Origin: an uncultured Candidatus Binatia bacterium
Lineage (GTDB): Bacteria > Desulfobacterota > Binatia > UBA9968 > JAJDTQ01
Length of the DNA: 64,000 nt
Direction: 5' to 3'
Assembly: GCA_965215605.1 (NCBI GenBank)
Contig: OZ244070.1
Coordinates: 2,176,001-2,240,000, forward strand
A program made the position numbers and the translations under genes. A model generated the notes under the pieces. It saw nothing but the letters and a program-made list of their open reading frames with translations. It did no database searches and was not told where the DNA came from. This document shows, piece by piece, positions 8,120-47,045 of this stretch (positions are counted from its first letter, which is position 1; each line of letters starts with the position of its first letter).

Positions 8120-9100
8120 ATGGACCCCCACGATTTTGCGCCCCGCTTCCCGTGGCTGGGCGGTGATCTGCAGACGCTGCGCTACTATTTCTTCCCCGCC
8201 AGCGAGGACTTGTCCGCCTGGCCGGCGGAGCGCTTGAGCTTTCCTCTGCCGGAGTCCGGCGGCGACGCGCTGCTTGCCATGCTGCATCGTCCGCCCCGCG
8301 CCACGGACCGCCCGCTGGTGATCCTGGTGCACGGCCTCACCGGGTGCGAGGGCAGCTCCTACATGTTCGAGACCACCCGCTCTTTCCTCAACCTCGGATA
8401 TCCGGTCATGCGCCTCAACCTCCGGGGCGCGGGCCCGTCGCGGGAGACTTGCAGTAGAAGTTATTGCAGCGGTTCCGGGGACAACATCGCGGCGGTGCTG
8501 TCGGCCCTCGACATCGAAGAGGCCCGCCGTGGAGTCGTGCTGATCGGGTTCTCCCTCGGCGGCACCGTGATGCTGCACGGTCTGGCGCGATATGCGTGCG
8601 CGGTCCCGCCCATCTGTGCGGTAACGGTGTCCACGCCGCTCGACCTGGCAGCCGTGATTCGCCGGCTGATGAGCCCCCGCAATGTGCTGTATCACCGGTG
8701 GCTGCTGGTGCGCATGAAGAAGGCGGTGATCGGCGGCGCCTCCGAGATTTCCCCGCGGCAACGCGCGGACGTCGAGGCCGCCCGCAGCATCTACGAGTTC
8801 GACAACGCCTTCACCGCGCCGCACCATGGCTTCGCGGACGCCGACGACTACTACGCGCGCTGCTCGGCCACCGGATTGCTGGAGCGCATCGACACCCCGT
8901 TGCTGCTGCTGCACGCCAGGAATGATCCTTGGATACCGGCGACGCCCTACGAGCGCATCGCCCGCGCCACCCCGCCCAACGTCACCCTGATGCTCACCGA
9001 CGACGGCGGCCACGTGGGCTTCCACGACCGCCGCAACGCCACGCCTTGGTACAACACCGTGATCCAGGCGTACCTGGAGCGTGTCACCGGCTCAGGATGA
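8120..9100 (+). CDS. YheT-like alpha/beta hydrolase
   Basis: Motifs HGLTG, nucleophile elbow GFSLGG, NDPW and GGHVGF. RBS GGAGG before ATG 8120. Confidence 0.85.
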   Translation: MDPHDFAPRFPWLGGDLQTLRYYFFPASEDLSAWPAERLSFPLPESGGDALLAMLHRPPRATDRPLVILVHGLTGCEGSSYMFETTRSFLNLGYPVMRLNLRGAGPSRETCSRSYCSGSGDNIAAVLSALDIEEARRGVVLIGFSLGGTVMLHGLARYACAVPPICAVTVSTPLDLAAVIRRLMSPRNVLYHRWLLVRMKKAVIGGASEISPRQRADVEAARSIYEFDNAFTAPHHGFADADDYYARCSATGLLERIDTPLLLLHARNDPWIPATPYERIARATPPNVTLMLTDDGGHVGFHDRRNATPWYNTVIQAYLERVTGSG

Positions 9101-15869: not shown

Positions 15870-15997
15870 GGTATCCGTCCTCTTCAGGCCGTCTGAAGGC
15901 CCTTGGCCCCATCCATATCACACTCCCGCGGCCGGAACGATGGTCCTTGAAATCACGCCGCCTATGGCATAGACGATAAGGTTTCGAGAGACCTGCC

Positions 15998-16999
15998 ATG
16001 GGAACCTATCTGCTGCGCCGCCTCGTCGGGACGATCCCGGTCATGATCCTGATCAGCCTGCTCGTCTTCCTGCTGATCCAGGCGGCTCCCGGCGACCCCA
16101 CGCTCATGCTGCTGGGCGAGGACAGTACCCAGGAGGATATCGATCAGGCCACGAAACGGTGGGGCCTCGACCAGCCCGTCTACGTCCAGTACGTCAAGTT
16201 CTTCATGTCCGCGGCCCAGGGCGACCTCGGCCGCTCGTTCAAGTACGACGAGCCGGTGCTGGACGTGATCGTCAACCGGATCCCGGCGACGCTGGAGCTG
16301 GCCAGCGCCTCGGTCATCATCGCGATCATCTTTGCCATACCGCTGGGGGTGTGGGCCGCGGCCAAGCCCAACTCGTGGGTGGACAATACCGGCACGACCT
16401 TCGGCCTGTTCGGCATCAGCATGCCCAGTTTCTGGTTCGGCATCATGCTGATCCTGTTGTTCGCCGGGATACTCAACATCCTCCCGTCCGCGGGACGGGA
16501 TACCTACGGCATCGCGGGTGAGCGCATTACCGGGTTCTACATTCTCGACAGCGCCCTCCAGGGCAACTGGGCCGGAGTGCGCGACGGCGCGGAACACGTG
16601 TTCCTGCCGGCGCTGGCGCTGGGCTCCAACATGCTCGGGATCCTCATGCGGGTGACCCGGTCGTCGGTGCTGGAGGTGATGAACGAGGAATACGTGACCA
16701 CCGCCCGGGCCAAGGGCCTGGTGGAGCGCAAGGTGCTGTGGCGCCACGTGTTCAGCAATGCGCTGATCCCGGTGATCACCGTGGTGGGGCTGGAGCTCGG
16801 CACGCTGCTCAGCGGCTCGATCATCGTGGAGACGGTCTTCTCCTGGCCCGGCAGCGGCAGCCTGCTGATCACCGCCCTCAACGCCCGGGACCACCCGCTG
16901 GTGACCGGGCTGGTGCTGGTTTACACGGCGGCGTTCGTCGCCATCAATTTTCTGATCGACGTGCTCTATGCAATCATCGATCCAAGAATCCGGTACTGA
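15998..16999 (+). CDS. Peptide/nickel ABC transporter permease (DppB/OppB-like)
   Basis: Motifs APGDP, GDLGRS, EAA loop EYVTTARAKGL and ETVFSWPG. Confidence 0.9.
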   Translation: MGTYLLRRLVGTIPVMILISLLVFLLIQAAPGDPTLMLLGEDSTQEDIDQATKRWGLDQPVYVQYVKFFMSAAQGDLGRSFKYDEPVLDVIVNRIPATLELASASVIIAIIFAIPLGVWAAAKPNSWVDNTGTTFGLFGISMPSFWFGIMLILLFAGILNILPSAGRDTYGIAGERITGFYILDSALQGNWAGVRDGAEHVFLPALALGSNMLGILMRVTRSSVLEVMNEEYVTTARAKGLVERKVLWRHVFSNALIPVITVVGLELGTLLSGSIIVETVFSWPGSGSLLITALNARDHPLVTGLVLVYTAAFVAINFLIDVLYAIIDPRIRY

Positions 17000-17885
17000 C
17001 ATCGGCCAACCGGAACCTGTTCCCAAGCGGCGCGGACGCCAGTGGTGGCGCCGGTGGATGCGGACCAAGGTCTACATCGGCGGCTCCATCGTGGTGATTT
17101 TCATCATCGCGGGCGCCCTCGGGCCGCTGGTGGCGCCCTACGATCCCAACCACCAAAGCCTCGAGACCATGCTGCAAGGCCCCCAGTGGTTCTGGGGGCC
17201 CCATTTCCTGGGCACCGACAACCTCGGCCGGGACATCCTGAGCCGCATCATCTTCGGCGCCAGGGTCTCTCTGCTGATCGCCTTCGCGGTGGTTTTCATA
17301 TCCGGTTTCGTGGGCGTCATTCTGGGAGCCACCTCCGGCTACTTCGGCGGCAACATCGACTTCACCATCCAGAAGTTCGTGGAGGTGGTGTGGGCCTTCC
17401 CGCCGCTGCTGCTGGCCCTCAGCATCATGGCGTTCCTGGGACAGGGGCTGGGCAACCTCATCCTGGCGCTGGTGGCCCAGCGCTGGATCCAGTACTGCAG
17501 GGTAACGCGCGGGCAGAGCCTGTCCCTCAAGGCCCGGGAGTTCGTCATCTCCGCCAAGTCGCTGGGCGCCAGCGACGCCCAGATCATCGCGCGCCACATC
17601 ATCCCCAACCTGATCCAGGTGTCCCTGGTCATCGGCACCTTCGCCATGGCGTCCTCCATCATCTCCGAAGCCAGCCTGAGTTTCCTGGGCCTGGGCGTGC
17701 CCCCCGAGATCCCCACCTGGGGCACCATGCTCGCCGACGGCCGCATCTACATCAGCACCGCATGGTGGCTGGCGCTCTTTCCCGGCCTGTCCATCTTCGT
17801 GACCGTCCTGGGGATCAACCTGCTGGGCGACGCCCTGCGGGACGTCCTGGACCCGAGGCTCAAGCGGGCGGGAACCGGCATTTGA
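16968..17885 (+). CDS. Peptide/nickel ABC transporter permease (DppC/OppC-like)
   Basis: Motifs LGTDNLGRD, EASLSFLGLG and NLLGDALRDVLDP. Exact start uncertain. Confidence 0.88.
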   Translation: MQSSIQESGTDIGQPEPVPKRRGRQWWRRWMRTKVYIGGSIVVIFIIAGALGPLVAPYDPNHQSLETMLQGPQWFWGPHFLGTDNLGRDILSRIIFGARVSLLIAFAVVFISGFVGVILGATSGYFGGNIDFTIQKFVEVVWAFPPLLLALSIMAFLGQGLGNLILALVAQRWIQYCRVTRGQSLSLKAREFVISAKSLGASDAQIIARHIIPNLIQVSLVIGTFAMASSIISEASLSFLGLGVPPEIPTWGTMLADGRIYISTAWWLALFPGLSIFVTVLGINLLGDALRDVLDPRLKRAGTGI

Positions 17886-18886
17886 CATCCTCGCCGTCAC
17901 GCCTGGGCATGGTGCTGTATCACGGCATCGACAGCGGCGACGAGTTGCGGAACCATGCCCGTGTCGCGGAAGAGGCCGGCTTCGATTCCCTGTGGGTGAC
18001 CGAGCGCTACTTCCACGAGGAAACCTTTTCGCTGCTGGGATTCCTGGCCGCCGCCACCCGGCGCATACGGCTGGGGCTGGGCGTCACCAATCCCTATACG
18101 CGAAACCCCGCGCTGATGGGCATGAGCGCGGCGACCCTGGACCGTATCTCCGGGGGCCGCTTCCTGCTCGGTCTGGGCCGGAGCGACAGGTCGGTGATCG
18201 AGGGCCGCATGGGCATACCCTACGAGCGGCCGCTGGAGCACATGAGGGAAACGGTCGCGCAGTTCAGAGAGCTCCTGGCCGGAGAGCGTGTCAGCGGAGC
18301 CGCCGCCTGTTGGGACCTGAAATCCGTGCGGCTGGCGGTGAAGCCGGTGCAGGAAAGCGTGCCCGTCTACCTGGCCGCCATCGGCCCCAAGGCGTTGCGG
18401 CTGGCGGGGGCGGTGGCCGACGGCGTCCTGCTCAACGCCTACGTCCCCGCGAGCTACGTGCGTTACGCGGTCCAGGAGATCACCGCCGCGGCCCGGGAAG
18501 CCGGCCGCGATCCGGCGTCCATCGACATCGCCTGCATGCTGATCGTGCGTCTCACCGACGATCCCGCGCGGATGATGCCGGCCCTCAAGGAGCGGATGGT
18601 GCGGCTCCTGGTGGAGCCCTTCGTGGGGGAGGTGTTGTTGGAGCGGGGCGGCTTCGATCCGGGAATTCTGCCGTCGCTGCGGGCCACCGCCGAAGATGAC
18701 GGCGAGAAGGCCGCCGTGCACCTGATCACCGAGGCCATGGTGGAGGCGTTCTATCTGCTCGGGGACGCCCGGGAGTGCCGCCGGCGCATCGACGAATACC
18801 GCGAGGCCGGGGTGAACCACCCGCTGCTGCTGCCCCGGCTCGAGGACTACGAGAGCGCCGTCGAGGCCTTGGGGCCCCGCCCGTAG
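17882..18886 (+). CDS. LLM-class flavin/F420-dependent oxidoreductase
   Basis: C-terminal part of the ORF 17042-18886: AEEAGFDSLWVTE, TLDRISGGRFLLGLG, AIGPKALRLAGAVADG. TTG start overlaps the dppC stop. Confidence 0.85.
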   Translation: MTSSPSRLGMVLYHGIDSGDELRNHARVAEEAGFDSLWVTERYFHEETFSLLGFLAAATRRIRLGLGVTNPYTRNPALMGMSAATLDRISGGRFLLGLGRSDRSVIEGRMGIPYERPLEHMRETVAQFRELLAGERVSGAAACWDLKSVRLAVKPVQESVPVYLAAIGPKALRLAGAVADGVLLNAYVPASYVRYAVQEITAAAREAGRDPASIDIACMLIVRLTDDPARMMPALKERMVRLLVEPFVGEVLLERGGFDPGILPSLRATAEDDGEKAAVHLITEAMVEAFYLLGDARECRRRIDEYREAGVNHPLLLPRLEDYESAVEALGPRP

Positions 18887-18951
18887 GGATGGGCCGCCTC
18901 GTCCCCGCGAGATATCATGGGGCAACCATATGACAAGCATTGATCCATCAT

Positions 18952-32934: not shown

Positions 32935-33927
32935 TCAGGAGCCGTTGCCGCTGTCCAGCCCCAGGAGCCTCGCGGCGTTGCCGCCGCGCACCGCGTCGGA
33001 GCCGCCCAGGCCGGCGCGCTCCAGCAGTCCCAGGGGATCGGTCTCGCCCATGTCGTAGGGGTAGTCGGTGCCCAGCAGGAGGCGTTCCTCGCCGGCAAGT
33101 TGATGCAGGAAGGCGAGCATGCGGGGGTCGTGCAGGATGGTGTCGAAGTAGAAGCGGCGGAAGTATGTCTCCGGGTTGCCGGGCACGGCGCGCGCCGCGT
33201 CCACCGCGCCGTGGCCGTGGACCACCCGGCCCAGGAGATATGGAAGGGCGCCGCCGCCGTGCACCAGGCAGATGTTGAGCGATGGGTAACGCTCCATCAC
33301 GCCGCCGAGGATCAGCGATGCCGCGGCAATGGCGGTGTCCACGGGATTGCCCACGAGGTTGTTCATGTAGTACCGGCTGAGCCGCTCCGCGGCGGCGACA
33401 CGGTGCGGATGCAGTTGCACCAGCACGCCCATGTCGGCCGCGCACTCGAAGAAGGGCCGGAACGCCTCGTCGTCGAGGTTGACGCCGTCGATGTGGGTGC
33501 CGATCTCCACCATCCGGATGCCCAGCGCGTCCACCGCGTAGCGCAGTTCCTCCACCGCCGCCACGGGGGACTGCATGGGGACGGTGGCCACCGGGATCAG
33601 CCCCGGCTCACCGCGCGCCGCCTCGGCATTGGTTTCGTTGAAGAGCCGCGACACCGCCTGCCCGTGAACCCCTTCCAACTGGTAGGTCACGATGGTCATG
33701 GGCGGCGACAGCACCTGCCGGTCCAGCCCCCGCTCCCGCATGGCGCTCAGGCGGGCGGGAAGGTCGGAGAGGAACGGCTGCAGCGCCGCGGGCCGCGCTT
33801 CCCCCACCCGCAGCGACAGCCCGCCGGAGCCGTCCTCCTCGATGTGGCAGCCGTGCCGGGCGCCGTCCCGGCGCATGGCCCGGATCCACTCGGGCGGAGT
33901 GAAGTGGGCGTGGACGTCGATGACCAT
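32935..33927 (-). CDS. Amidohydrolase_2 family (ACMSD-like decarboxylase/hydratase)
   Basis: Motifs IDVHAH, LHP, VHGGGALP, FYFDT and LLGTDYPY. Confidence 0.88.
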   Translation of the reverse strand: MVIDVHAHFTPPEWIRAMRRDGARHGCHIEEDGSGGLSLRVGEARPAALQPFLSDLPARLSAMRERGLDRQVLSPPMTIVTYQLEGVHGQAVSRLFNETNAEAARGEPGLIPVATVPMQSPVAAVEELRYAVDALGIRMVEIGTHIDGVNLDDEAFRPFFECAADMGVLVQLHPHRVAAAERLSRYYMNNLVGNPVDTAIAAASLILGGVMERYPSLNICLVHGGGALPYLLGRVVHGHGAVDAARAVPGNPETYFRRFYFDTILHDPRMLAFLHQLAGEERLLLGTDYPYDMGETDPLGLLERAGLGGSDAVRGGNAARLLGLDSGNGS

Positions 33928-34124
33928 GTGCGTCGTTCCCCTTTGCTTTTGCTGGTGGCCCCTGTGTTTAGGGACCGGACGGACGACTGCGCGATGCGCA
34001 TGCCGAATTCCCTACATCTACTACGCGACAGGTAGATGGGTCCATCCGTCGGAACTTCTCAAGAGACAACTTGATCAGGTATGGTATCGGTCGCGGTCAC
34101 GACGAACTCAAAGGTAGGTTACCG

Positions 34125-37100
34125 ATGCCGCCTAACCATGTAATTGACAACCATCACGAGACTCTGGCGGATCACCTTCGCCCCCGAATGATCAACGCGG
34201 ACGAGCTGCGCATGGTTTCCGCGTATTTCTCAATATACGGGTATGCGCTGCTGGAAAACGAACTTGGGACCATCGGAAGAGTCCGTTTTCTGTTCGGCGA
34301 GCCGGATTCGGCGGCCGATCTTGATCCCGGCAAGCAGGAGTTCAAGTCTTTCGAGATGACGGAGACGGGACTGTCCCCGCGCCATCAGCTACAACAAAAA
34401 CACCTTGCGCTGCGCTGTGCTGATTGGATTCGTAGTAATGTCGAAGTCCGTTCCATCAAGCAGGTGAATTTTCTGCACGGCAAGATGTATCTCACGGAGA
34501 CACGGGACGGTGGCGACGCAGTGGTAGGCAGCTCGAATTTCACTAAACGGGGTCTGGGCGGTGCAGCGGACGCCAACCTGGAGATCAATCTGGCGGTCGG
34601 CGCCGAGCCTCCGGGCGCGTGGCTTGACCTCAAGCAATGGTTCGATGCTCTTTGGCGGGACACCGGCCGCACAAGAGACGCCAAGGACGACGTATTGAAA
34701 GCGCTTGCCCGTGTCGGTCGCGACTACGCGCCGGAGTTCGTTTATTACAAGACGCTCTACGAATTGTTTCGGAGCGAACTGGAAGCCCAGAGAGCCGGTG
34801 AGAGCGACCTGCAGACACGTCTTTACGATACCGGGATCTGGAGGACGTTGTACGACTTCCAGAAAGATGCGGCGAAAACGGTCATCACTCGACTTGAGCG
34901 TCAGGGCGGATGCATCCTGGCGGACAGCGTGGGGCTTGGCAAGACCTACACGGCGCTGGCCGTCATCAAGTACTACGAACTCCGTTTCAACGCGCGGGTG
35001 CTCGTGCTGTGTCCGAAGAAGCTTAACGAGAACTGGATTCTGTATCCGGCCGCGAACGCCCGCAAGCAGAATCCGTTCATGGACGACCGCTTCGCGTTTA
35101 CAGTCCTGTCCCATACCGACTTGTCTCGAAGCAGCGGCGAGGCCGGTTCTATCAATCTCGCGGACTTCGACTGGAGTGGCTTTCATTTGGTTGTCATCGA
35201 CGAATCACACAACTTCCGGAACGCCACGGCAGGGCGCAAGGATAACCAAGGCAACGTCGTCAAGATGAGTCGCTATGAACGGCTGCTTGAGGAGGTCATC
35301 GCCAAAGGCGGCGACACCAAGGTGCTGATGCTGTCGGCGACCCCGGTCAACACGTCGCTCACCGATCTGCGCAATCAGATTGACCTGATGACTAACAAAC
35401 GCGAGGACTCGTTCCATGAGACTCTGGGTATTGGCAACTTCCGCAACTTGCTCGACGCCGCGCAGCGCAAGTTCAAGACTTGGGAGACGAGGAACAGAAC
35501 ACGGGACAAGACAAGCCTAGTCGAAGAGTTGGGAGCAGATTTCTTCAATCTCCTCGCGCGCGTCTCCATTGCCCGATCACGCAGGCAGATCAAGAAGTTT
35601 TACGCTGAGTCCATGCGCGAGATCGGCAGCTTTCCGTCACACGAAGTGCCAGAGAATCGCTATCCGCCGACGGACCTTCAGGGCGGGCTATCCTACAAGC
35701 TATTGAACGACCAGATCTCTTCGTTCTCCCTTTCTATCTACAATCCTTCCGCCTATGTCCTCAGCGAGGATGTGCTGCGCGACCTTCAGCAAGAAAAGGA
35801 AAAGTACCGTTTCAATCAGGCCGACCGCGAGAAGTTCCTGATCGGAATGATCCGAACGAACTTTCTGAAGCGGTTGGAGAGCTCCGCCCGGTCGTTGGCC
35901 CTGACGCTTGAACGCACGGTTGCCAAGATCGACGATCTTGCAGCGAAGATCGACGAATTCGACCGGAACCGAACTGAGTTGGACATCGAGACCGACGTGA
36001 CCCCCGAAGACGATGAGGACGATGAGGAGTTTCTCGTCAATCGAGGACGCCACCCTTTCCATTTGAAAGACCTGGACCGGTCCCGTTGGAAGGACGACCT
36101 CCTGCGGGATCGGGCTGTACTTGACAAAGCGCGTCGGAGCGTGGAACTGGTGACACCGGATCGGGACGGGAAGCTGGCTGCGGTTGTCGAAGATGTTCGT
36201 CGCCGGGCCTCAAGACCCACTACGGACAAGGACGGCCGCACCAACCGCAAGCTGCTCATCTTCACCACGTTCAAGGACACCGCCGAATACCTCTACGAGA
36301 ACCTCGAACCTGTGGCTCGTGAATCGAATCTGACCGTCGCTATGGTTGCCGGAGATGTAGTGCGGGCGCCTGAAGGCCCCAGTGATTTCCAGACGATTCT
36401 CGCCCGTTTTGCGCCTCGAGCGCGCGGAATACACAACGAGAAGAATGAACTCGATCTCCTGATCGCCACCGACTGCATTTCCGAAGGCCAGAATCTCCAG
36501 GACTGCGACACTGTCCTGAACTACGACATCCACTGGAATCCCGTGCGTCTTATCCAGCGCTTCGGACGCATCGACCGCATCGGTAGCCGTAGCCAGTCGG
36601 TGCGCATGATCAACTACTGGCCCACCAACGACATGGAGTTGTACCTGAATCTCCGGCACCGTGTGCAGGCGAGAATGGCGCTGGCGGACGCCGCGGCTAC
36701 AGGTGACGAGAACCGCCTGGCTGGTGATGCGGAAGAACAGGCACAGATGGAACTGAATTTCCGTGATGAACAACTCAAGCAATTGAAGAACGAAATCATC
36801 GATCTCGACGACATGGCGGACAGCGTAGTGATTAGCGACTTCACCCTGGACTATTTCCTGTCGCAACTCCTGCGTTATCTCGAACACAACAGGAAGGAAC
36901 TCGAAGCGGCTCCCAACGGGATCTACGCGGTCACCCAGGCAGAAGAGGGGAACCCCAGGTCCGGGGTTCTCTTCCTCCTGCGGCAGCGCAACGTCGCGGA
37001 CGGCGACGGCGCTCGTCATGTAAGCCTCACGTCACCCTGGTTTCTGGTCTTCATGCGCGACGATGGCACTGTGGGTCTGAGCCACATCAAGGCCCGCCAG

Positions 37101-37376
37101 GCCCTCGACTTGTTCGAGCGCGTGGCAGCAGGACAAGTGGAGTCATTACAGGAGCTCTGTGACGCCTTCGATGCGGAGACGCGTCAGGGTCGTGACATGA
37201 GCCGATACGACGCTCTGCTGGAAATCGCGGTGACAAGCATCGTCGGCCAATTCAAGGAAGTGGTCCGGCAGCATGTCGGCAAGCGCGGGTTCACGATTCC
37301 CAAGAAGGTTGAGCAACCGGCGGAACTCGACGACTTTGAGTTGGTAACTTGGCTGATCGTCAGGAATGGTACGTGA
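34125..37376 (+). CDS. PLD-nuclease domain fused to an SNF2-type helicase (restriction/defence-associated)
   Basis: PLD motif HGKMY...GSSNFT...NLEIN, Walker A ADSVGLGKT, DESHN, LSATP, and helicase-C motifs TDCISEGQNLQ and QRFGRIDRIG. Confidence 0.88.
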   Translation: MPPNHVIDNHHETLADHLRPRMINADELRMVSAYFSIYGYALLENELGTIGRVRFLFGEPDSAADLDPGKQEFKSFEMTETGLSPRHQLQQKHLALRCADWIRSNVEVRSIKQVNFLHGKMYLTETRDGGDAVVGSSNFTKRGLGGAADANLEINLAVGAEPPGAWLDLKQWFDALWRDTGRTRDAKDDVLKALARVGRDYAPEFVYYKTLYELFRSELEAQRAGESDLQTRLYDTGIWRTLYDFQKDAAKTVITRLERQGGCILADSVGLGKTYTALAVIKYYELRFNARVLVLCPKKLNENWILYPAANARKQNPFMDDRFAFTVLSHTDLSRSSGEAGSINLADFDWSGFHLVVIDESHNFRNATAGRKDNQGNVVKMSRYERLLEEVIAKGGDTKVLMLSATPVNTSLTDLRNQIDLMTNKREDSFHETLGIGNFRNLLDAAQRKFKTWETRNRTRDKTSLVEELGADFFNLLARVSIARSRRQIKKFYAESMREIGSFPSHEVPENRYPPTDLQGGLSYKLLNDQISSFSLSIYNPSAYVLSEDVLRDLQQEKEKYRFNQADREKFLIGMIRTNFLKRLESSARSLALTLERTVAKIDDLAAKIDEFDRNRTELDIETDVTPEDDEDDEEFLVNRGRHPFHLKDLDRSRWKDDLLRDRAVLDKARRSVELVTPDRDGKLAAVVEDVRRRASRPTTDKDGRTNRKLLIFTTFKDTAEYLYENLEPVARESNLTVAMVAGDVVRAPEGPSDFQTILARFAPRARGIHNEKNELDLLIATDCISEGQNLQDCDTVLNYDIHWNPVRLIQRFGRIDRIGSRSQSVRMINYWPTNDMELYLNLRHRVQARMALADAAATGDENRLAGDAEEQAQMELNFRDEQLKQLKNEIIDLDDMADSVVISDFTLDYFLSQLLRYLEHNRKELEAAPNGIYAVTQAEEGNPRSGVLFLLRQRNVADGDGARHVSLTSPWFLVFMRDDGTVGLSHIKARQALDLFERVAAGQVESLQELCDAFDAETRQGRDMSRYDALLEIAVTSIVGQFKEVVRQHVGKRGFTIPKKVEQPAELDDFELVTWLIVRNGT

Positions 37377-40226
37377 AGCGGAGCCTTCAAGCGCGGTGTC
37401 GTCATGGTGGATCGAACTGAAATACAGGCTGTGTTACGCGGTTTGTCGACCGGCGATCTGCTAGAAGGGGCCACGGGTCTCCTTGAAACCCTCGGCTATG
37501 CAAGTGATCGGACCCTCGCGGATTCTGGGGACCCGCGGGCCTTTTTTGCAGATTCTCCTTCTACTACGGAATCCCGTCACAACCTGCTGGACAAGGCCAA
37601 GGTCATTCGTCTGATCTTTCAGGTTACGGATGAAGAGATTCGATCCGGTGCTGGAGCACGTTTCATGGAATTCGATGGCGCCGGGTTCGATCAAGGGAGG
37701 ACGGATTGTTTTCTGTTCGTCGCTGTGGAATTGCGCGACGAATGGTATGCCCGCTCTACCTATGCCGGGATGACGCGGGAGATCAACCGGGCTTTTGAGG
37801 GAGCGCCCGCGGTCGTGCTCTTCCGCGCTGGACGACGTCTCACTATGGGTTTCGCTGGCCGGCGCGCCCACCAACGCGATGCCGCCCAAGACGTGGTGCA
37901 GGAAGTGAACCTGATCAAGGACATCAAACTTGCAACTCCCCATCGCGCTCACATCGATACGTTGGCCGAACTGTCCCTTCCGGCGATGCTCGCCTGGATG
38001 GACGCGCACGACAAACCCCATAATTTCGACGGCCTTCTCACGGCATGGCTCGCAATACTGAGCACCGAGGAACTCAACAAACGCTTCTACAAGGAACTGT
38101 TCGGTTGGTTCCAACGCGCCGTCAACGAGGCGAAATTCCCCCGCGACAAGAACAAGACCCTGCCTAAGGAGGAGCACATCATCCGCCTGATCACACGGTT
38201 GATGTTCATCTGGTTCATCAAGGAGAAAGGTTTGGTTGCAGGAGACATCTTTGTTGAGACACGGGTTCGCCATTTGTTGAAGGGCTATGATCCTGCGGCC
38301 GGCGATTCCTGGTATCGCGCCGTACTGCAGAACCTCTTCTTCGCTACCCTCAACACCGAGATCGGCAAACGTCGGTTCAGCACCGCCAGTCGAACCACCC
38401 ACCGGGTATTCTCCCTGTATCGGTACAAGGATCTGATGGCGAAACCGGACGAATTGATGGCGCTGTTCGAGAAGACCCCGTTCATCAACGGAGGCCTGTT
38501 CGAGTGCCTGGACAGTGGCGACAGGTCCCAAACCGCGAAGGGTTACCGCATCGACTGTTTCTCGGACAACCTGGAACACCGTGCCAAGTTGAGTGTGCCC
38601 AATCGCCTGTTTTTCGACGAAAAAGGGTTGATTCCGATCTTTGAACGCTACCGATTCACGGTAGAAGAAAACACACCCGTCGAGCAGGAAGTGGCGCTGG
38701 ATCCCGAACTGCTCGGCAAAGTGTTCGAAAACCTCCTCGCCGCCTACAACCCGGAAACGCGCGAGACGGTGCGCAAGCAGACCGGCTCCTACTACACGCC
38801 GCGGCCGGTGGTGAACTACATGGTTCGGGAGACAGTGGCTGCGGCGCTCGCAGAAAAGCTGAAAGCGGAGAATGACAAGGCCACGGAGTGGCGAGAACGT
38901 CTCGCGGGTTTGGTTGATGAAACCCATGCCTTCGGGAGTGACGACAACAGTTTTTTTGACGATGACAAGCGGCAATCGGTGGTCCGGCGCATTGCCGACC
39001 TGACGGTTCTGGACCCTGCCGTCGGCTCCGGCGCGTTTCCCATGGCCGTCCTGCATGCCTTGACGCTGGCACTCCGTAGACTGGACCCGGACAACCACCA
39101 TTGGGAGCAGGTCCAGCGGGACCGCGCCGGAACTCGCGCCAGACGTGCCTTCGACACCAGCGACGACGACACCCGTGGATTGGCGCTCAAGGAGATAGAC
39201 GAGACCTTCAAGCGCTATCGCGACTCTGACTTCGGGCGCAAGCTGTATCTGATCCAGAACACCCTGTTCGGCGTGGACATCCAGCCCATCGCCTGCCAGA
39301 TCGTCAAGCTGCGCTTCTTCATTTCGCTGGCGATCGAGCAGCAGGCGACCAAGGATTCTGCGGATAATTACGGCATTCGTCCGCTACCGAACCTGGAAAC
39401 CCGCTTCCTCGCGGCGAACACGTTGCTCGGAACGGCGGCGCAACGCAATCTTAGAACAGGGGAACAGGATCGCATCGAGGGCGAATTGCGAGAGAATCGC
39501 GAGCAGCATTTCAATGCCACCACTTGGGATGAAAAGACCGAATGCAGAAAGATCGACGAAAAACTCCGGACCGCACTGACGACAGAGCTCGTGCGTAACG
39601 CCGGCTTGTCTGGTGTCGAAGCAAGGAAAATTGCTGCGTGGGACCCATACGACCAGAACAGTGTGGCGGACTGGTTCGATCCGGAGTACATGTTCGGCAT
39701 CAACGACGGGTTCGATGTGGTCATCGGCAACCCGCCCTATATCCAGTTGCAGAAGAACGGCGGCCAGTTGGGGCAGTTTTACAGGAACGCCGGATACCAG
39801 ACGTTTGCCTCCACCGGCGACATCTACCAGCTTTTCTACGAAAAGGGCTGCCAACTGCTGAAGCCGGCCCGTGGACTGCTGGCCTACATTACGTCCAACA
39901 GTTGGTTGAAAGCGGAATACGGCAAACGGCTGCGCGGTTACTTCTCTGGTCAACACACGCCGCTGCGCCTGCTAGAGATGGGCAAAGATGTTTTTGACAA
40001 CGCCATTGTGGATACGAGCATACTGATTGCCCGCGAAGGGCGCGAGAGCGTCACCAGCAAGGCCGTGGATATGGACCGCTTGCCGGACAAGACGATCTTC
40101 CCACCGGCTGAACATCTTTGGGGTGAGCTGCGCCCCCGTGGCGAAAAGCCCTGGAGTGTGCTGTCATCCGTCGAGCAGGGTATTATGGACAAGATGGAGA
40201 AAGTTGGAACGCCGCTGAAAGAGTGG

Positions 40227-40238
40227 GATATCGCAATT
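40227..40238. repeat. 12-bp outer inverted repeat GATATCGCAATT (partner 45380-45391); candidate crossover site
   Basis: Homology between the two TRD cassettes begins exactly here (codons DIAI), with none outside it. Confidence 0.75.
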
Positions 40239-40293
40239 AACTACGGAATTAAGACCGGCTACAACCGCGCCTTCATCATCGATAACATCACTA

Positions 40294-41447
40294 ATATCCT
40301 GTCCGATTAATTAGTTGAAAAACAATACAGGGTGTAGTACCATGGGGAGAAGGGTGAAGGAGGCACCATGGCACGACCACCAGCAGGGATCGTTTTGAGT
40401 GAGGAAGAGAAGGCGGAGCTTGAGAGATGGAGCCGGCGGCGCAATACGCGAGCGGGTCTTCATCTGAGAGCGGGCGTGATTTTGGATTGCGCGCGAGGTT
40501 ACACAGGGGAGGAGGTGGCGAAGCGACACCACACGAGCCAGCAGACGGTGTCGAAGTGGCGGGGGCGGTTCGCCCGAGAGCGACTGGCGGGACTGTCCGA
40601 TGCTGTACGAAGCGGCCAGCCGCGCAAGCACAACGACATACGGGTGCAGGAAGTGTTGGACGCGACACTGAATCGACGGCCGAAGCATGCCACGCACTGG
40701 AGCGTGCGGAGTTTATCCGAGGACCTGGATGTGCCACGGGATTTCGTTCATCGTGTATGGCGAGCATTCGGGCTCAAACCTCACCTGTCGCGAAACTTCA
40801 AGCTATCCACCGATCCGCACTTCATCGACAAGGTGCGGGACGTGGTGGGTCTTTATCTGAATCCGCCGGACAAGGCGCTGGTGTTGTGCGTGGATGAAAA
40901 AAGCCAGATTCAGGCATTGGACCGTACCCAACCCGGTTTACCGCTGAACTACGGCACACCCGAGACTCGGACCCATGACTATCGGCGCTATGGCACCACC
41001 ACGCTGTTCGCCGCACTGGAGGTAGCCACGGGTCGAGTGTTGGGCAAGCTGCACCGCCGGCACAGAAGCCAAGAGTTCATCGCCTTCTTGCGCCACATCG
41101 ACTCGCAGGTCCCGGCCGCCTTGGAAGTCCACCTCATTCTCGACAACTACGGTACCCACAAGACCGCCCAAGTCAAGAATTGGCTGTTACGACACCCCCG
41201 ATTCCACTGTCATTTCATCCCCACCTACAGTTCCTGGATGAACTTGGTGGAGCGCTTCTTCGCAACCTTGTCCGAACACCAGTTACGCCGAGGCACCTAC
41301 CGCTCCGTGGTCGCTCTGGAGAAAGCCATACGAAATTACCTCGACCTGCACAATCAACATCCCAAGCCGTTTCGTTGGACCAAGTCCGCTGATGCCATCA
41401 TTGACTCCGTCACCAGCGTTATTAAACGAATTAACCAGACACCACAC
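40294..41447 (+). mobile_element. IS630-family element, apparently intact
   Basis: TA duplication at 40292-93 and 41448-49. Imperfect IRs ATATCCTGTCCGATTAATT / GTGTGGTGTCTGGTTAATT. Confidence 0.92.
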
Positions 41448-41450
41448 TAA
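40368..41450 (+). CDS. IS630 transposase
   Basis: HTH N-terminus and DDE triad in VDEK, LDNY and LVERFF. 360 aa. Confidence 0.93.
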
Positions 41451-41672
41451 CAGGTTGTTGAAAAACTCCGCCTGACGCGGATAACAGTAAGTAACATATT
41501 GGTATTGAGCGGGAGTAAAGGATGAGAGGAACGGATCCGCGTCAGGAAGGGATGTTCAGCTATGTGTCGCCGGCGGCGCGAGTGCCTGCGGACCATCCAT
41601 TGCGAGCGATGAGGTGGTCCTGGTTTGTAGGACAGGTAGGCGGCGGAGATAAGGTGTATTCCAGACGTTCGA

Positions 41673-42599
41673 TCATGCCGCCAAGGTCCCGTTTATCACG
41701 TCTTCGTGTTCCGATGGAACTGACAGAGGGGCGGGCGGGGTGTGAGGTCCGGCCTGCCTCTTGAGTCCTCGTTCGTAGGCCTCGGCCGGGGTGGAGCCGG
41801 CGAGGGCGGAATGAGGCCTTTGGGTGTTGTAGAAGTGGAGCCAGTTGGCGATGGTCCTTTGGGCGGCGAAGCCGTCCGAGAGCTCGTGCAGGTAGACGGC
41901 CTCGTACTTGAGGGAGCGCCACAGGCGCTCGATGAAGATGTTGTCCATGCACCGGCCCCTGCCGTCCATGGAGATGGCGACGCCGGCGTCCTTGAGCACG
42001 GAGGTGAACTCCAGGCTGGTGAACTGGCTGCCCTGGTCGGTGTTGAAGATCTCGGGAGGGCCGTAGCGTTCCAGAGCCTCTGAGAGGGCCTCGACACAGA
42101 AGCGGGCATCGAGGGTGTTCGACAGCCTCCAGGAGAGCACCCGGCGGGTGGCCCAGTCCATCACCGCCACCAGGTACAGGAAGCCCTTCTGGACAGGGAT
42201 ATAGGTTATATCTGCGGTCCACGCGTGATTGGGCCGTTCGATGGCGACCCCCTTGAGCCGATAGGGGTAGACCCGGTGCTCGGGATGCGGTCGGGTGGTC
42301 CGCGGCGCCTGGTAGATGGCCTGGAGACCCATCAGGCGCATCAGACGCCGCACCCGGTGACGACCCACACGGTCGCCCTCCCGCCACAGATGGCGGACCA
42401 TCTGGCGGCTGCCGTAGAAGGGGTACTCCAGGAACAGCTTGTCTATCCGGCGCATCAACGCCAGATTCTCCCCGCTCTCGCCCTTGGGCCGGTGGTACAC
42501 AGAGGATCGACTCACTCGAAGCAGATGGCATTGACGGCTCAAGCTGAGCTTGGGATGGCCGGGCTCGATCATCCCCCGGCGCTTCTCCCGGCTCACCAC
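41673..42599 (-). CDS. IS3 transposase OrfB (rve DDE)
   Basis: Motifs YGSR, WTADITY, NTDQGSQF and IERLWRSLKYE. Confidence 0.92.
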   Translation of the reverse strand: MVSREKRRGMIEPGHPKLSLSRQCHLLRVSRSSVYHRPKGESGENLALMRRIDKLFLEYPFYGSRQMVRHLWREGDRVGRHRVRRLMRLMGLQAIYQAPRTTRPHPEHRVYPYRLKGVAIERPNHAWTADITYIPVQKGFLYLVAVMDWATRRVLSWRLSNTLDARFCVEALSEALERYGPPEIFNTDQGSQFTSLEFTSVLKDAGVAISMDGRGRCMDNIFIERLWRSLKYEAVYLHELSDGFAAQRTIANWLHFYNTQRPHSALAGSTPAEAYERGLKRQAGPHTPPAPLSVPSEHEDVINGTLAA

Positions 42600-42874
42600 T
42601 TGAGCCCTTTGGCCAAAAAATCCCGCTCCACCGTCAGCTCCCCTATCTTCGCGTGCAGGTCCCGGACCTCCCCCTCGTGGTCTCCTCGTGCCCGCTCGGC
42701 TCCCTTCGAGAACACCTCCTTCATCCCCTCCACCGCCCGTTGCTTCCAGGTGCTCACCTGGTTCGGATGGACCTTGTGCCGCGCCGCAATCTCCTGGATC
42801 GTCTTGTCTCCGCGCAGCGCCTCCAGCGCTACCTTCGCCTTGAACTCTCCGCTGAACCGTCGTCGTGTGCTCAT
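42593..42874 (-). CDS. IS3 transposase OrfA
   Basis: RRRFSGEFKAKVALEA HTH and a leucine zipper ending ERDFLAKGL. Confidence 0.9.
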   Translation of the reverse strand: MSTRRRFSGEFKAKVALEALRGDKTIQEIAARHKVHPNQVSTWKQRAVEGMKEVFSKGAERARGDHEGEVRDLHAKIGELTVERDFLAKGLKW

Positions 42875-43840
42875 TGCGTATCCCCTCCCTAAGTCGGTGG
42901 AATACACCTTAGCAACCTGTCCGATTTTCCAGGACCACCTCAAAGAACCGGCAGCGGTTGATCGGGTCGGACATCGCGCGGGCCTTTTTCGGTCAGATAC
43001 TGGGCCAAGCCCGCGAAGGACGCCTGTTGTCGGATGAACACTTCAGCGTGGACGGGACGTTGCTGGAGGCGTGGGCGTCGATGAAGTCGTTCCGGCCGAA
43101 AGACGGAGGCGGACGGCGTGGTGGCGGTGGACGCAATGCCGAGGCGGACTTCCACGGCGAGAAGCGCAGCAATGCGACCCACCAGTCGAGCACCGATCCG
43201 CAGGCACGGCTGTACCGCAAGGGCCAGGGGCAGGAAGCGAAGCTGTGCTACCTGGGCCATGCGTTGATGGATAACCGCCATGGACTGATCGTCGATACCC
43301 GTACCACCGAAGCCGCCGGCCGGGCTGAGCGCGAGGCGGGCTTGGCGATGATTGCGGCGCGTCCCGGCATCGATCGGCTCACCCTCGGGGCGGACAAGGG
43401 ATACGATACAAAAGACTTTGTGGAGGGACTGCGCTGTGCCAACGTCAGTCCGCATGTGGCCCAGAACGACACCCACCGGCGTTCCGCCATTGACCGGCGC
43501 ACCACCCGTCACCGTGGTTACGCGGTGAGCCAGCGCATCCGCAAACGGATCGAGGAAGGCTTCGGCTGGGCCAAGACCATCGGAGGCATGCGCAAACTCA
43601 AGCACCGGGGCCTGGCCAAGGTGGACTTCCAGTTCACCCTCACCTTCGCCGTCTACAACCTGGTGCGACTCCGCACCCTGGGAGTCGGAGGTTGAGCATG
43701 CGTCCATGGCCACCGTGCGTCTGCGCCGGCTTCGTTCCCTTGAAATGGCCGGCGAAGCAAGTTCTGCTCCATGCCCTGAAGCCAGCTTTTCCATCGATTC
43801 TCTCACAAACGCTCAAATCTAGGCGTTTTTCCACGGCCTG

Positions 43841-43952
43841 CTAAGGAAGCGCTGGTGAGGGAGGATCCTCGGTCTGCCGAAATCATCAAACCGGTGTTGC
43901 GCGGCCGGGATATCCGCAGATACCGAGCAAAGTGGGCGGGACTGTGGTTGAT
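43841..43952. repeat. Main part of the left arm of the 134-bp perfect inverted repeat (remaining 22 bp at 40269-40290)
   Basis: 40269-40290 plus 43841-43952 equals the reverse complement of 45216-45349 base for base. Confidence 0.92.
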
Positions 43953-44611
43953 CGCGACCTTTCCTGCTCTTGGAATCAACATTGACAACTATCCTGCGGT
44001 GAAGCGGCACTTGCTGTCTTTCGGCAAAGCGCGATTGGAACAATTCGGTAAGATCCTGCCGGACGGCACGACATCCAGAAAGAAAACTGTATACTCGTGG
44101 TACGAATTACAGGATACTTGCGCTTACCACGCAGCGTTTCGGCACGAGAAACTGCTTTGGATGGACATGTCCAATGAGGGTCGCTTCGCCTACTCCAACA
44201 CCGAAATCTACTGCAACGACAAGGGCTTCATCATGACAGGAACGGCTCTCAAGTTTCTTTGTGGGATTCTGAATAGCGCTCTTATCACCTGGGTCATGAG
44301 AAAGAACGCACTGACTACCGGATTAGGGCTTATACAGTGGAAGAAGTTCGCAGTGGAGCGGCTTTCTATCCCGCACATAACGGTCAGAGAGCAGCGCACT
44401 TTCATTGATTTCGTAGAACGTTTGCGAACAGATGACAGGTTCGCGACGAGTTTCGACCCACACGGTGTGGAAGTTGAGCTCAATCAACGCGTGTACTCAC
44501 TGTACAGCTTGACCCCTTCAGAGATCGCCGCAGTAGAGAGACACTGACCTGCTTCCTCACTTGCCCGATTCCGGGACCACCTCAATGGAGAAGCAGCGTC
44601 CTTGGCCGTCG

Positions 44612-45391
44612 TCAATGATTTGTCGGACGATTGGGCTTTGCTGAAACGGCTCCCTTCAGAACAGCTTCAGATTCCTTGAAGGTGAGGCCGTAGAGCTTGC
44701 ATACGAGTCGGTCTATTTCCCTTTCCTTGTCGGTGGTGTTGACCGGCGGGTCTGAGGCCTTGAATTTTAGGACCCGATCGACCAAATCGACAAACGGTCG
44801 GCGGTGTGAGTTTGGTGCTTTTGGGATGGGTATGGCTTCTACGGAAGCACTGATCCATCGTGTTACACCCATGCCAGAGTTCAGGGCCGTTTTACCCATA
44901 AACCAGGTTATCAGCCTCGAGTTCAGCAACGCGCAGAGATATTTGATAGACGAACCAGACATCAGGAAGCCTGTGTTTAGGCAAAACGTACCATCCTTAT
45001 CGTAGGCAAATCGGCCTTCTTCTGTGAGGTCCATCCACAGCAGTTTCTCCTCCGAAAATACTTCGTGGTAAGCGCAATTACGAAGATTGTAAGGAGTTCT
45101 ACCCTTATCCTGCCGTTTTACCAATTGGGGATAGAAGCCATTCAGGTGGTCTTTGACTGAGGGATAGTCGTCAACATCGACAGGCGGAACATCACCGTAT
45201 CCGTTGTGCGCGTCAATCAACCACAGTCCCGCCCACTTTGCTCGGTATCTGCGGATATCCCGGCCGCGCAACACCGGTTTGATGATTTCGGCAGACCGAG
45301 GATCCTCCCTCACCAGCGCTTCCTTAGTGATGTTATCGATGATGAAGGCAGCATTGTAACCGGTCAGAATTCCTCGATAAATTGCGATATC
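44612..45391 (-). CDS. Silent alternative TRD cassette (allele B) of the methyltransferase
   Basis: Open frame DIAIYRGILTGYNAAFIIDNITKEAL...PYNLRNCAY...EKLLWMD...LNSRLITW, paralogous to allele A. No credible start or RBS of its own. Confidence 0.88.
   Translation of the reverse strand, partial: DIAIYRGILTGYNAAFIIDNITKEALVREDPRSAEIIKPVLRGRDIRRYRAKWAGLWLIDAHNGYGDVPPVDVDDYPSVKDHLNGFYPQLVKRQDKGRTPYNLRNCAYHEVFSEEKLLWMDLTEEGRFAYDKDGTFCLNTGFLMSGSSIKYLCALLNSRLITWFMGKTALNSGMGVTRWISASVEAIPIPKAPNSHRRPFVDLVDRVLKFKASDPPVNTTDKEREIDRLVCKLYGLTFKESEAVLKGAVSAKPNRPTNH
45216..45349. repeat. Right arm of the 134-bp inverted repeat
   Basis: Encodes AFIIDNITKEALVREDPRSAEIIKPVLRGRDIRRYRAKWAGLWLI on the minus strand, identical to allele A. 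Confidence 0.92.
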
Positions 45392-45455
45392 GTTGGTCAA
45401 GTCTTCGCAGTCTACGAGGTGGATGACTCTCAAGTCCCAGAAACAGGAGTTTCCC

Positions 45456-46424
45456 ATGAGTCCGTCGGTGACGAATAGATCTGACATTCACAACACTGTC
45501 CTGTCCTCAGCAGTTGCCCCTAATACGCGACTGGCGTACAGCAAAAGTTGGGCGTGCTTCACCGCGTACTGCACAGACGAGCAGATCGGCGACCCCCTGT
45601 CCGCTTCTCCAGAAATCGTCGCCCGTTTTCTTCTGGACTGCGCTACACGGCCCCGTCTGGGGCGCGACGTACCGTTGTCCATGGGCACGGTCTTCGTCTA
45701 CAACAGTGCAATCACCAAACGGTTCACCGACGCTGATAAGGTCTCGCCCACCCACCACCCAACCGTCCGGGCAACTCTCAGAGGCTTGAGCCGCCTTACG
45801 GACGCCGCGCCGCGGCGGGTCAAGGCGTTGCGCGAGGAGCACGTGAGGGCCATGATCGCTCAGTGTCCCGACTCGGTTATCGGGATGCGGGACGCAGCCG
45901 TTCTCGCTCTAGGTTTCGCCGCTGCCCTGCGCCGGTCTGAACTCTGCGCGCTGCGCGTGGACGATGTGGCCATCCTCCAGCCGGGCCGTGCACACCCCCG
46001 GCGGATGTTGCTCACGATCCGCCGATCCAAGACCGACCAAACCGGCAAAGGCCATACGATCGCTGTCCCGGAAGGGAAGACGATCAGGCCCATCCACCGT
46101 GTGCGGGCATGGCTGGCGGCGTCCGGCATCACGCACGGGCCGTTGTTTCGGACGATGAAGCGGGGCGGCGCGGTGCAAGAGAGGCCACTGCACCATTCGG
46201 ACGTTCCGCGCTTGGTCAAGCGCTACGCTGCGTTGATCGGGCTAGATCCGAAAGAGGTGGCAGGTCATTCGTTGCGTGCTGGTTTTGTAACCAGCGCCGC
46301 GGCGCACCATGCGCGCCTCGACAAGATCATGGCTGTTACGCGCCACACCAACCCGGCCACGGTCATGAAGTACATCCGCGACGCCGACGCGTTCAGCGAC
46401 CATGCGGGCGATGCCTTTTTGTAG
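45456..46424 (+). CDS. Cre-like tyrosine recombinase (putative invertase)
   Basis: RBS AGGAG. SAM-like N-terminus (NTRLAY) and catalytic motifs LRRSEL, SKTDQ, HSLRAG and RH...KYIR. Confidence 0.9.
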   Translation: MSPSVTNRSDIHNTVLSSAVAPNTRLAYSKSWACFTAYCTDEQIGDPLSASPEIVARFLLDCATRPRLGRDVPLSMGTVFVYNSAITKRFTDADKVSPTHHPTVRATLRGLSRLTDAAPRRVKALREEHVRAMIAQCPDSVIGMRDAAVLALGFAAALRRSELCALRVDDVAILQPGRAHPRRMLLTIRRSKTDQTGKGHTIAVPEGKTIRPIHRVRAWLAASGITHGPLFRTMKRGGAVQERPLHHSDVPRLVKRYAALIGLDPKEVAGHSLRAGFVTSAAAHHARLDKIMAVTRHTNPATVMKYIRDADAFSDHAGDAFL

Positions 46425-46469
46425 AAACACCCATCTTCTAATGTGGCAGCCGTGCCGGTGGCCTTTCGG

Positions 46470-47045
46470 CTATTCGGTCTTGGACATCACGTCAGCGGCG
46501 GCTAGGTCCTCGCCGACGCGGTGGAACGGCCGGCCCGAATCGCTCAATGCAAGGACCACGACGATCTCGTCGGCGCGCGGGGCGTCGGCGACGGAGACCT
46601 GCATGGCGTCGAAATGGCTGAACTTCCAGACGTCGTCCTTGTGGTGCAGCGGGCAATCGATGACCGTCCCGGGGCCGCCGATCTTCTTGGTCGATGGCAT
46701 GACCGAGTTCGCCGGGCCGACGACCTCGCGCACCGGCCGGCCCAGCCGGGGGTGCATCACCGCCGCGGCATGCTCCTTCTCGCCGTTCTCGCCGACGATC
46801 GCCGCCTTGCCGTAGCTGTGGACGGCGGCCCCGTCGATCCCCAGCGCATCGATGGCGCGTTGAACCAGCACGCCGCCAAGCTCCGCCCCCGCCTTCTGCA
46901 ACTCTTCGAGGCCCTCGTCATAGACCCCGGCATAGGGGTTGGCGATCACCGCGATGGCCGCGGCTTGCCGCGTCGGAGGCTCCACCGGCCGGTCGATCTC
47001 GCGCCGGGTCTCCTCGACAATGGTGATAAGCTTGCGGATTTCCAT
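46470..47045 (-). CDS. 'Amino acid synthesis' (AA_synth) family protein
   Basis: Motifs AVIANPYAG, YGKAAIVGENGEKEHAAA, SHFD and DAPRADEI. Confidence 0.82.
   Translation of the reverse strand: MEIRKLITIVEETRREIDRPVEPPTRQAAAIAVIANPYAGVYDEGLEELQKAGAELGGVLVQRAIDALGIDGAAVHSYGKAAIVGENGEKEHAAAVMHPRLGRPVREVVGPANSVMPSTKKIGGPGTVIDCPLHHKDDVWKFSHFDAMQVSVADAPRADEIVVVLALSDSGRPFHRVGEDLAAADVMSKTE

Follow-up and report, generated by a model that had tools for sequence, protein, structure and literature searches.

Type I hsdS invertons, of which pneumococcal SpnIII/ivr is an example, combine a silent cassette, repeats within the coding sequence (CDS) and a tyrosine recombinase, and change the specificity of both methylation and restriction. 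In the R64 shufflon the tyrosine recombinase Rci rearranges C-terminal coding segments, using several segments and many short sfx sites. Here we describe a locus of related layout in a 64,000-nucleotide stretch of the genome of an uncultured Candidatus Binatia bacterium (contig OZ244070.1, positions 2,176,001 to 2,240,000; the whole stretch is called the window, and coordinates count from its first letter). At 34.0-46.4 kb of the window lie a helicase-nuclease gene, an N6-adenine methylase gene ending in a target-recognition domain (TRD), a second TRD cassette in inverted orientation and a tyrosine recombinase gene.

Milman, Yelin and Kishony (NAR 2023; PMC9881135) presented 22 inversion loci confirmed by long reads. 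Of these, 11 target Type II restriction-modification (RM) enzymes, divided among a DISARM class 1-like group, Cj0031 homologues and BREX-1 PglX. Table 3 of that paper includes two Cj0031-homologue loci with a PLD + SNF helicase CDS beside the methylase. At the first of these, in Bacteroides ovatus (CP083813.1, 5322008-5329826), the PLD + SNF helicase CDS is given as immediately upstream of the methylase, inverted-repeat homologues are reported from three phyla and variants coexist in long reads; the other locus named with the C. jejuni Cj0031-type PLD + SNF pairing is CP044495.1. The kind of switch and the gene pairing discussed here have been in print since 2023, and an earlier sequence-only reading of the window, which did not recognize the architecture as characterized, is corrected by these long-read-confirmed inversions in PLD-SNF-paired Type II methylase genes (PMC9881135).

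We consider the Binatia locus to be probably a programmed-inversion specificity switch of a two-gene, ATP-dependent RM-like island, a reading to which sequence comparison lends good support. In this particular genome the switch is probably dead, because the methylase gene is split by 3,550 nt of nested insertion sequences (ISs).

Cassettes and Inverted Repeat

The features of the locus other than the ISs are as follows, with the strand and the basis of each assignment in brackets.

34071-37376 (+): presumed motor of restriction, an SNF2 helicase with a fused HKD (PLD-type) nuclease (Pfam, PADLOC, motifs)
37404-40290 (+): methylase body as far as the IS insertion, 962 codons and 1 nt (Pfam Eco57I, 2.3e-32)
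40227-40268 (+): beginning of the duplicated segment, with 12 nt shared at its edge followed by variable patch N (NYGIKTG), 5' of the repeat (cassette alignment; comparison with the related loci G011, L019 and G010, described below)
40269-40290 (+): left arm of inverted repeat IR1, first 22 nt (read from the sequence)
43841-43952 (+): left arm of IR1, other 112 nt (repeat search, 100%)
43843-44547 (+): TRD cassette A (modules alpha + p), continuing the methylase frame after IS removal (TaqI_C, 2.2e-12; end of the PADLOC IIG profile, 1e-59)
43953-45215 (no strand): 1,263-nt segment that would be flipped by inversion through IR1 (distance between the arms)
44115-44193 (+): I2, a second, diverged inverted repeat at 76% over the conserved CAYH..EKLLWMD block, partner at 45002-45080 (repeat search)
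44612-45391 (-): silent TRD cassette B (patch Y, modules beta + q), a 259-codon open frame (TaqI_C, 3.7e-15; PADLOC, 9.1e-58)
45216-45349 (-): right arm of IR1, unbroken (repeat search and alignment)
45456-46424 (+): tyrosine recombinase of 322 aa, the presumed invertase (Pfam Phage_integrase, 2.3e-15)

The two cassettes lie tail to tail with a 64-nt spacer between them. A repeat search matched 43841-43952 to 45216-45327 over 112 nt at 100%, and the identity resumes on the far side of the insertion for a further 22 nt (40269-40290 and 45328-45349). When IS-free cassette A is aligned to cassette B, all 134 of 134 repeat columns are identical, in agreement with the perfect 134-bp repeat originally described. 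Outside IR1 the cassettes have 326 of 598 aligned bases in common (54.5%), a background against which an identical run of 134 columns has a chance of ~10^-35. Joining the methylase body (37404-40290) to 43841-44547 gives a stop-free product of 1197 aa, and joining it to the reverse complement of cassette B gives one of 1200 aa, also stop-free, so that the in-frame fusion predicted by the sequence-only reading is borne out.

The outer 12-mer GATATCGCAATT, which encodes DIAI, is present at 40227-40238 and 45380-45391 as previously noted and forms the edge of the duplicated segment. It is absent from the silent copies of G011 and L019, and for this reason we do not count it as a separate site. 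After it come 30 diverged bases, encoding NYGIKTGYNR in cassette A and YRGILTGYNA in cassette B, and then IR1. The NYGIKTG/YRGILTG patch, which had been named as a likely DNA-contact difference between the TRDs, lies upstream of the 134-nt repeat and would not be exchanged by it; evolution has re-linked this patch in G011.

Cassette B had also been described as lacking a start codon. Strictly this is not so, as its frame remains open for 32 further codons (45392-45487, -) to an in-frame ATG at 45487, but that ATG lies inside the recombinase gene, whose first 32 nt the extended frame overlaps on the opposite strand. In G011 the silent cassette has no start codon near its 5' end. Within the spacer, ~26 nt at 44569-44598 resemble the IS3-family terminal inverted repeat (42915-42942), with an 11-mer core found 34 times in the genome, and may be a solo IS end left behind. 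The spacer folded as RNA (44535-44625) was unremarkable, with a z-score of -0.88, and a promoter and terminator scan of 43800-46600 returned no more sites than shuffled sequence.

Related Loci and Module Exchange

We surveyed 41 genomes of the genus and order for methylase orthologues and found a clear one in three (G010, G011 and G036). G011, a member of the same genus, has a helicase (51% identity), an intact methylase of 1295 codons (53%) to which a TRD is attached, a spare TRD in inverted orientation and a recombinase (67-68%). Its repeat extends over 171 nt at 91% in the repeat search, with a 131-nt core at 98.5% by BLAST, and a second inverted repeat of the I2 type is also present. In G010 the helicase and methylase are present, the latter with one TRD, but spare cassette and recombinase are both missing; G036 has a more distant helicase-methylase pair without a recombinase. 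L019, from a Dehalococcoidia metagenome-assembled genome (MAG), has a recombinase of 64% identity, a 78-nt repeat at 91% and a helicase homologue (29%) downstream of the recombinase. The helicase-methylase-inverted TRD-recombinase synteny for which the sequence-only reading had suggested searching recurs in G011, and L019 likewise has the methylase, inverted cassette and recombinase. The flanks of the three loci (window, G011 and L019) are unrelated. In all three genomes that have a silent cassette (the window's, G011 and L019), this cassette is a full-length open frame, which is expected only with occasional expression.

Compared over the 134 columns of the repeat, left and right arm show 100% identity in the window and 97.8% in G011, whereas the arms of the window and those of G011 share 75-77%. 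The arms have therefore evolved in concert inside each genome.

Three modules make up each cassette in mosaic fashion: a patch ahead of the repeat (N or Y), a middle module (alpha or beta) extending to CAYH..EKLLWMD, and a distal one (p or q). The attached and silent cassettes are, respectively, N-alpha-p and Y-beta-q in the window, Y-alpha-q and N-beta-p in G011, and N-gamma-p and Y-beta-q in L019; the single TRD of G010 is Y-beta-q. Two switches of topology are seen along the informative columns, one exactly at IR1 and the other at the CAYH..EKLLWMD block (I2). As the modules are linked differently in G011 and the breakpoints fall at the repeat, we conclude that exchange has occurred.

Recombinase and Its Relatives

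The recombinase gene starts with an ATG at 45456, 65 nt past 45391, with AGGAG 5 nt before the ATG. Alignment to XerD and Cre places all of the catalytic residues (R159, K192, H271, R274, H297 and Y306), and both the position of the start and the intact catalytic set match the original description. The label Cre-family does not survive, since the match to Cre (4e-6) is as weak as that to XerD (1.6e-6) and every NCBIfam Xer model falls far under its cut-off. To judge from its sequence, the protein is a tyrosine recombinase and not specifically a Cre.

A scan of genome contigs with two recombinases gave 77 loci, 18 of them at an identity of at least 48% (L014-L031). These loci are not independent: several come from related MAGs, and L026 and L027 from one genome. 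A TRD pair stands beside the recombinase in L016, evidently the G011 locus again, and in L019. Non-palindromic inverted repeats of at least 100 nt occur in 8 of the 18 loci (L014, L015, L016, L017, L021, L022, L026 and L027) and shorter inverted repeats in L019 (78 nt) and L018 (57 nt); four loci without a repeat of at least 100 nt are contigs of less than 14 kb. For rough comparison, repeats of that kind and length were present in 5 of 150 stretches of 19 kb drawn at random from the genome to which the window belongs.

Ten open reading frames (ORFs) from seven of the recombinase loci were compared with Pfam, yielding four TonB-dependent receptors, three RTX-repeat proteins and three without a family. 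Pairs of TonB-dependent receptors flank the recombinase in L017 (6070-8946 and 10046-12838) and L018 (5480-8785 and 9914-12961). RTX calcium-binding repeat proteins were found in L021 (0-12000), L026 and L027 (32-7028), and the ORFs without a family, which include a 535/553-aa pair, belong to L014 and L015 (L015, 5196-8713). Relatives of the recombinase at 54-83% identity adjoin inverted paralogue pairs of unrelated genes or lie between the two members. In L021, dozens of short inverted repeats on either side of the recombinase resemble a multi-segment shufflon.

Two further loci contain parts of the system. In L030, a Nitrospirales MAG, a TRD fragment of 109 residues (8552-8839) lies directly upstream of the recombinase. 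In L029, an Arenicellales MAG, an HKD-SNF2 helicase homologue (15616-18888, 49% identity) is separated from the recombinase by 5.7 kb in which there is no TRD. These two loci may represent decay or rearrangement of the same switch. Alignment of the recombinase to metagenome contigs found one locus, L091, at 82% identity and with no TRD.

Helicase-Nuclease, Methylase and the Island

The helicase-nuclease gene is a frame of 1101 codons (34071-37376) with an N-terminal PLD/HKD nuclease domain followed by an SNF2 helicase. It matches PLDc_2, SNF2-rel_dom, ResIII and Helicase_C in Pfam, its top PADLOC profile is C3a139 'HKD+Snf2' (8.8e-102), and it contains the motifs H136-x-K138...GSSN, GLGKT, DESH and QRFGRIDR. 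The methylase gene, which starts 27 nt downstream, encodes an Eco57I-type gamma-class N6-adenine methylase with DPAVGSGAF (motif I) at residue 537 and NPPY at 776. Its match to the PADLOC profile REase_MTase_IIG (3.1e-87) begins at residue 431 and is confined to the methylase and TRD part. Residues 1-430 had no family match in Pfam, NCBIfam, PADLOC or a PDB sequence search, and ESM Atlas gave leads only, to DUF7814 / MmeI helical spacer clusters. The PDB sequence search with the methylase returned catalytic-domain matches only (CamA-type, BseCI and TaqI methylases). Compared with a Type IIG enzyme, the chain has on its methylase side the gamma-class motifs and a fused TRD (DPAVGSGAF, NPPY, Eco57I, TaqI_C), and on its nuclease side the sequence-family searches recognized no endonuclease domain. 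Going by these matches, the protein is 'Type IIG-like' only in its methylase and TRD parts.

The G+C profile of the window delimits 34.0-46.4 kb as an island of 0.50-0.61 between flanks of 0.62-0.71, bordered by an amidohydrolase gene (32935-33927, -) and an AA_synth gene (46470-47045, -). Its four coding elements are the helicase-nuclease, the methylase, the two TaqI_C cassettes and the tyrosine recombinase. In a synteny comparison none of seven proteins from the window flanks was matched at the G010, G011 or G036 loci, so the island occupies different sites in different genomes.

Membership of two described defense systems was considered and rejected. For the BREX-related Type-2 BR / MANTIS systems, the DUF499 (AAA+) ATPase and its DUF3780-type partner are not in the island at 34.0-46.4 kb, the rest of the genome not having been searched. 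For class 1 DISARM, the island has no further genes for DrmA, DrmB (DUF1998) or DrmC, and PADLOC gave only weaker DrmD (6.1e-35) and DrmMI (4.8e-14) profile matches, below the 'HKD+Snf2' and IIG matches.

Disruption by Insertion Sequences

The elements that split the methylase gene are listed below.

40291-43840 (no strand): 3,550-nt insertion of three ISs (Pfam, genome copy search, ends read)
40295-41446: IS630-family element with a DDE_3 + HTH transposase (Pfam)
41451-43840: IS5-family element with terminal inverted repeats and DDE_Tnp_1 (Pfam, ends read)
41610-42942: IS3-family element nested in the IS5-family element, rve + HTH_21 (Pfam)

An insertion at this place had been noted before as an IS; the insertion is confirmed, but it comprises three nested ISs. 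The tetranucleotide CTAA occurs three times around them (40291-94, 41447-50 and 43841-44) and once in the unbroken right arm, which fits two successive insertions into one tetranucleotide, each duplicating CTAA. The IS3-family element has no flanking direct repeat (41600-41612, 42940-42950), and the transposase frame of the IS5-family element is incomplete, with ~30 codons before the IS3-family element and 245 after it; together these suggest a deletion beside the IS3-family element. The order of loss would be an IS5-family insertion on the CTAA 22 nt into the left arm, an IS3-family insertion inside the IS5-family element and an IS630-family insertion on the duplicated CTAA. At least 10 other copies of the IS3-family element are present in the genome, in which the IS5-family element is unique. 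The IS630-family copy has two sisters in the genome, 99.7-99.9% identical and flanked by CTAG, and this degree of identity indicates that the disruption is recent. The open frame of the methylase enters the IS and stops at 40310; with its frame broken, the methylase has no TRD at its end. Open frames persist in the helicase-nuclease, both cassettes and the recombinase.

Three ISs in the methylase gene, the IS3-end-like 26 nt in the inter-cassette spacer and a genome rich in IS copies would also suit a pseudogenized defense island that is functionless in any state and whose perfect repeat is a recent duplication. We regard this as very unlikely, because a recent duplication would give near-identity throughout, not 134 nt at 100% within cassettes that otherwise share 54.5%. 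The open frames of the other genes, the recent date of the disruption and the intact form in G011 also speak against it.

Orientation in Public Sequence Data

Four public runs from one study, kept as contigs (Logan), cover the locus. The inner segment 43923-45245 is reproduced without differences in all four, in one piece in X2-X4 and in two overlapping pieces in X1, and the recombinase side (45216-46500) is likewise reproduced without differences, in one piece in X1-X3 and in two overlapping pieces in X4. The contig joints listed are three 'skips' with short sides, and an IS-free junction is present in none of the contigs of the four runs. An exact 40-mer of the repeat had no matches in metagenome contigs, and no near-identical strain was found there.

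That the inverted repeat or the orientation of the segment arose by misassembly of a metagenome-derived genome is extremely improbable. The assembly is in 8 contigs and the short-read contigs break exactly at the repeat arms, as an artefact of this kind might leave them, but the same layout with its own diverged repeat is present in two independent assemblies, the contigs of four runs agree with the inner segment and the recombinase side, and no alternative copies occur elsewhere in the assembly.

Within the recombinase gene, the summed contig depth at 46208-46415 rises from ~10 to 620-900 in three of the four runs, and a 51-nt contig of depth 2095 maps to 46296-46332. A very abundant short community sequence shares this stretch of the recombinase gene.

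Proposed Mechanism and Its Rivals

The island, as we interpret it, would comprise an HKD-SNF2 helicase-nuclease and a single-chain gamma-class N6-adenine methylase carrying its own TaqI_C domain, with cassette A fused to the methylase and cassette B silent, tail to tail on the other strand. The neighboring tyrosine recombinase would invert the 1.26-kb segment between the 134-nt arms inside the coding sequence, swapping the middle and distal TRD modules together with the C-terminus and giving either the 1197-aa or the 1200-aa product. The swap would change the methylated sequence and also the restricted one, given that the nuclease brings no reader with it. We infer that the recombinase, rather than RecA, performs the inversion, that specificity changes upon inversion and that the nuclease depends on the methylase.

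Several observations weigh against this reading. Of 401 genomes in a phylum sample, 36 match cassette B, and a close inverted pair was found only in the window's own genome (G000), so with one inverted pair among 36 the invertible form is a rare variant of a common methylase family. The contigs of the four runs over 43400-46500 end at the repeat arms, as those of any k=31 graph would, and no strand-changing joint is listed. The nearest relatives of the recombinase (83%, L014 and L015) adjoin other genes and not methylases. The recombinase gene itself has a G+C content of 0.62-0.65 (45500-46500), close to that of the genome flanks, compared with 0.50-0.52 for the cassettes (44000-45500), and the recombinase and the methylase island may have separate histories. 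As the methylase gene is broken, there is no present selection for switching in this genome. Finally, inspection of IR1 by eye across the window, G011 and L019 gave no convincing recombinase core site in the form of a conserved dyad, and a perfect repeat of 134 nt could be inverted or homogenized by homologous recombination too.

The lack of a convincing core site would also suit an alternative in which the spare cassette is a static paralogue, homogenized and now and then exchanged by RecA-dependent gene conversion between the arms, and the recombinase is the integrase of the 12-kb island and not an invertase. The 134 nt of perfect identity would suffice for homologous recombination, gene conversion could yield the module mosaic, and the island, lower in G+C than its flanks and found in differing contexts in the window, G011 and L019, is mobile. 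We nevertheless think this explanation unlikely. The recombinase adjoins the silent cassette in all three loci, although gene order otherwise varies (the helicase of L019 lies downstream of the recombinase). G010 has neither spare cassette nor recombinase, which ties the recombinase to the spare cassette and not to the island. Relatives of the recombinase adjoin inverted pairs of genes with unrelated cargo or lie between them. At the ends of the island, where no dedicated search was made, neither direct repeats nor a tRNA gene turned up.

Programmed inversion is the reading we retain, in a form narrower than first proposed: the recurrence of the layout, the concerted evolution of the repeat and module recombination at the repeat uphold the switch, but present function in this genome is not upheld, the methylase being interrupted by the 3,550 nt of ISs. 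A broader proposal, which we put forward with considerable doubt, is that three exchangeable TRD modules are shuffled through nested repeats (the homology edge, IR1 and I2), by which a methylase with one spare cassette could reach more than two specificities, and that the recombinase represents a distinct clade of dedicated invertases, not described before. Members of this clade, in MAGs of uncultured Binatia, Gammaproteobacteria and others, stand also beside inverted TonB-receptor, RTX and no-family gene pairs, and would serve surface-protein gene pairs in uncultured lineages.

Comparison with Known Systems

If the switch works in the intact relatives, a single enzyme would alter both the methylome and the restriction target. 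Such a switch would let an uncultured lineage that has received little study hedge its bets against phages, and it might constitute a phasevarion.

The locus resembles the hsdS invertons in its silent cassette, its repeats within coding sequence and its neighboring tyrosine recombinase. In those systems, however, HsdS is a separate protein and there are several short repeats, whereas here the TRD lies within the methylase, HsdR and HsdM are absent and there is one long repeat. The R64 shufflon also differs, as the Binatia locus has a single segment, possibly with a second, diverged repeat, and one long repeat. The term shufflon, applied to the locus at first, is not appropriate for one perfect repeat pair and one pair at 76%, with no multiple short sites and a single invertible segment.

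Among Type II-like systems, the BREX type 1 PglX locus of Lacticaseibacillus rhamnosus (NC_013198.1) is described as a recombinase-adjacent inversion that swaps part of an N6-adenine methylase (PMC9881135), and in this it is similar. As presented there, two nested inversions swap the middle of PglX and the C-terminus is kept, whereas one inversion would here swap the whole C-terminal end. BREX moreover has BrxA/B/C, PglZ and BrxL, none of which is present here. The BREX-related Type-2 'BR' system (PMC12839542) and MANTIS (Gao_RL) (10.64898/2026.09.23.753747) share the combination of an HKD-Swi2/Snf2 effector with an N6-adenine methylase; by their published descriptions they need a DUF499/AAA+ ATPase and a DUF3780-type partner, whereas the island here holds two genes, a spare cassette and a recombinase.

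The Cj0031-type loci have in common with the Binatia locus a single-chain Eco57I-type methylase, inverted repeats in the CDS and a PLD-helicase gene immediately upstream (PMC9881135). The likeness is drawn from the published description. The present copy belongs to a different phylum and is disrupted by ISs. What the Binatia locus adds is clear concerted evolution of a recombination repeat, a module-level mosaic that locates the exchange, and a defense switch put out of action by ISs that landed exactly in its recombination repeat. The more useful lead may be the recombinase clade with its other cargo.

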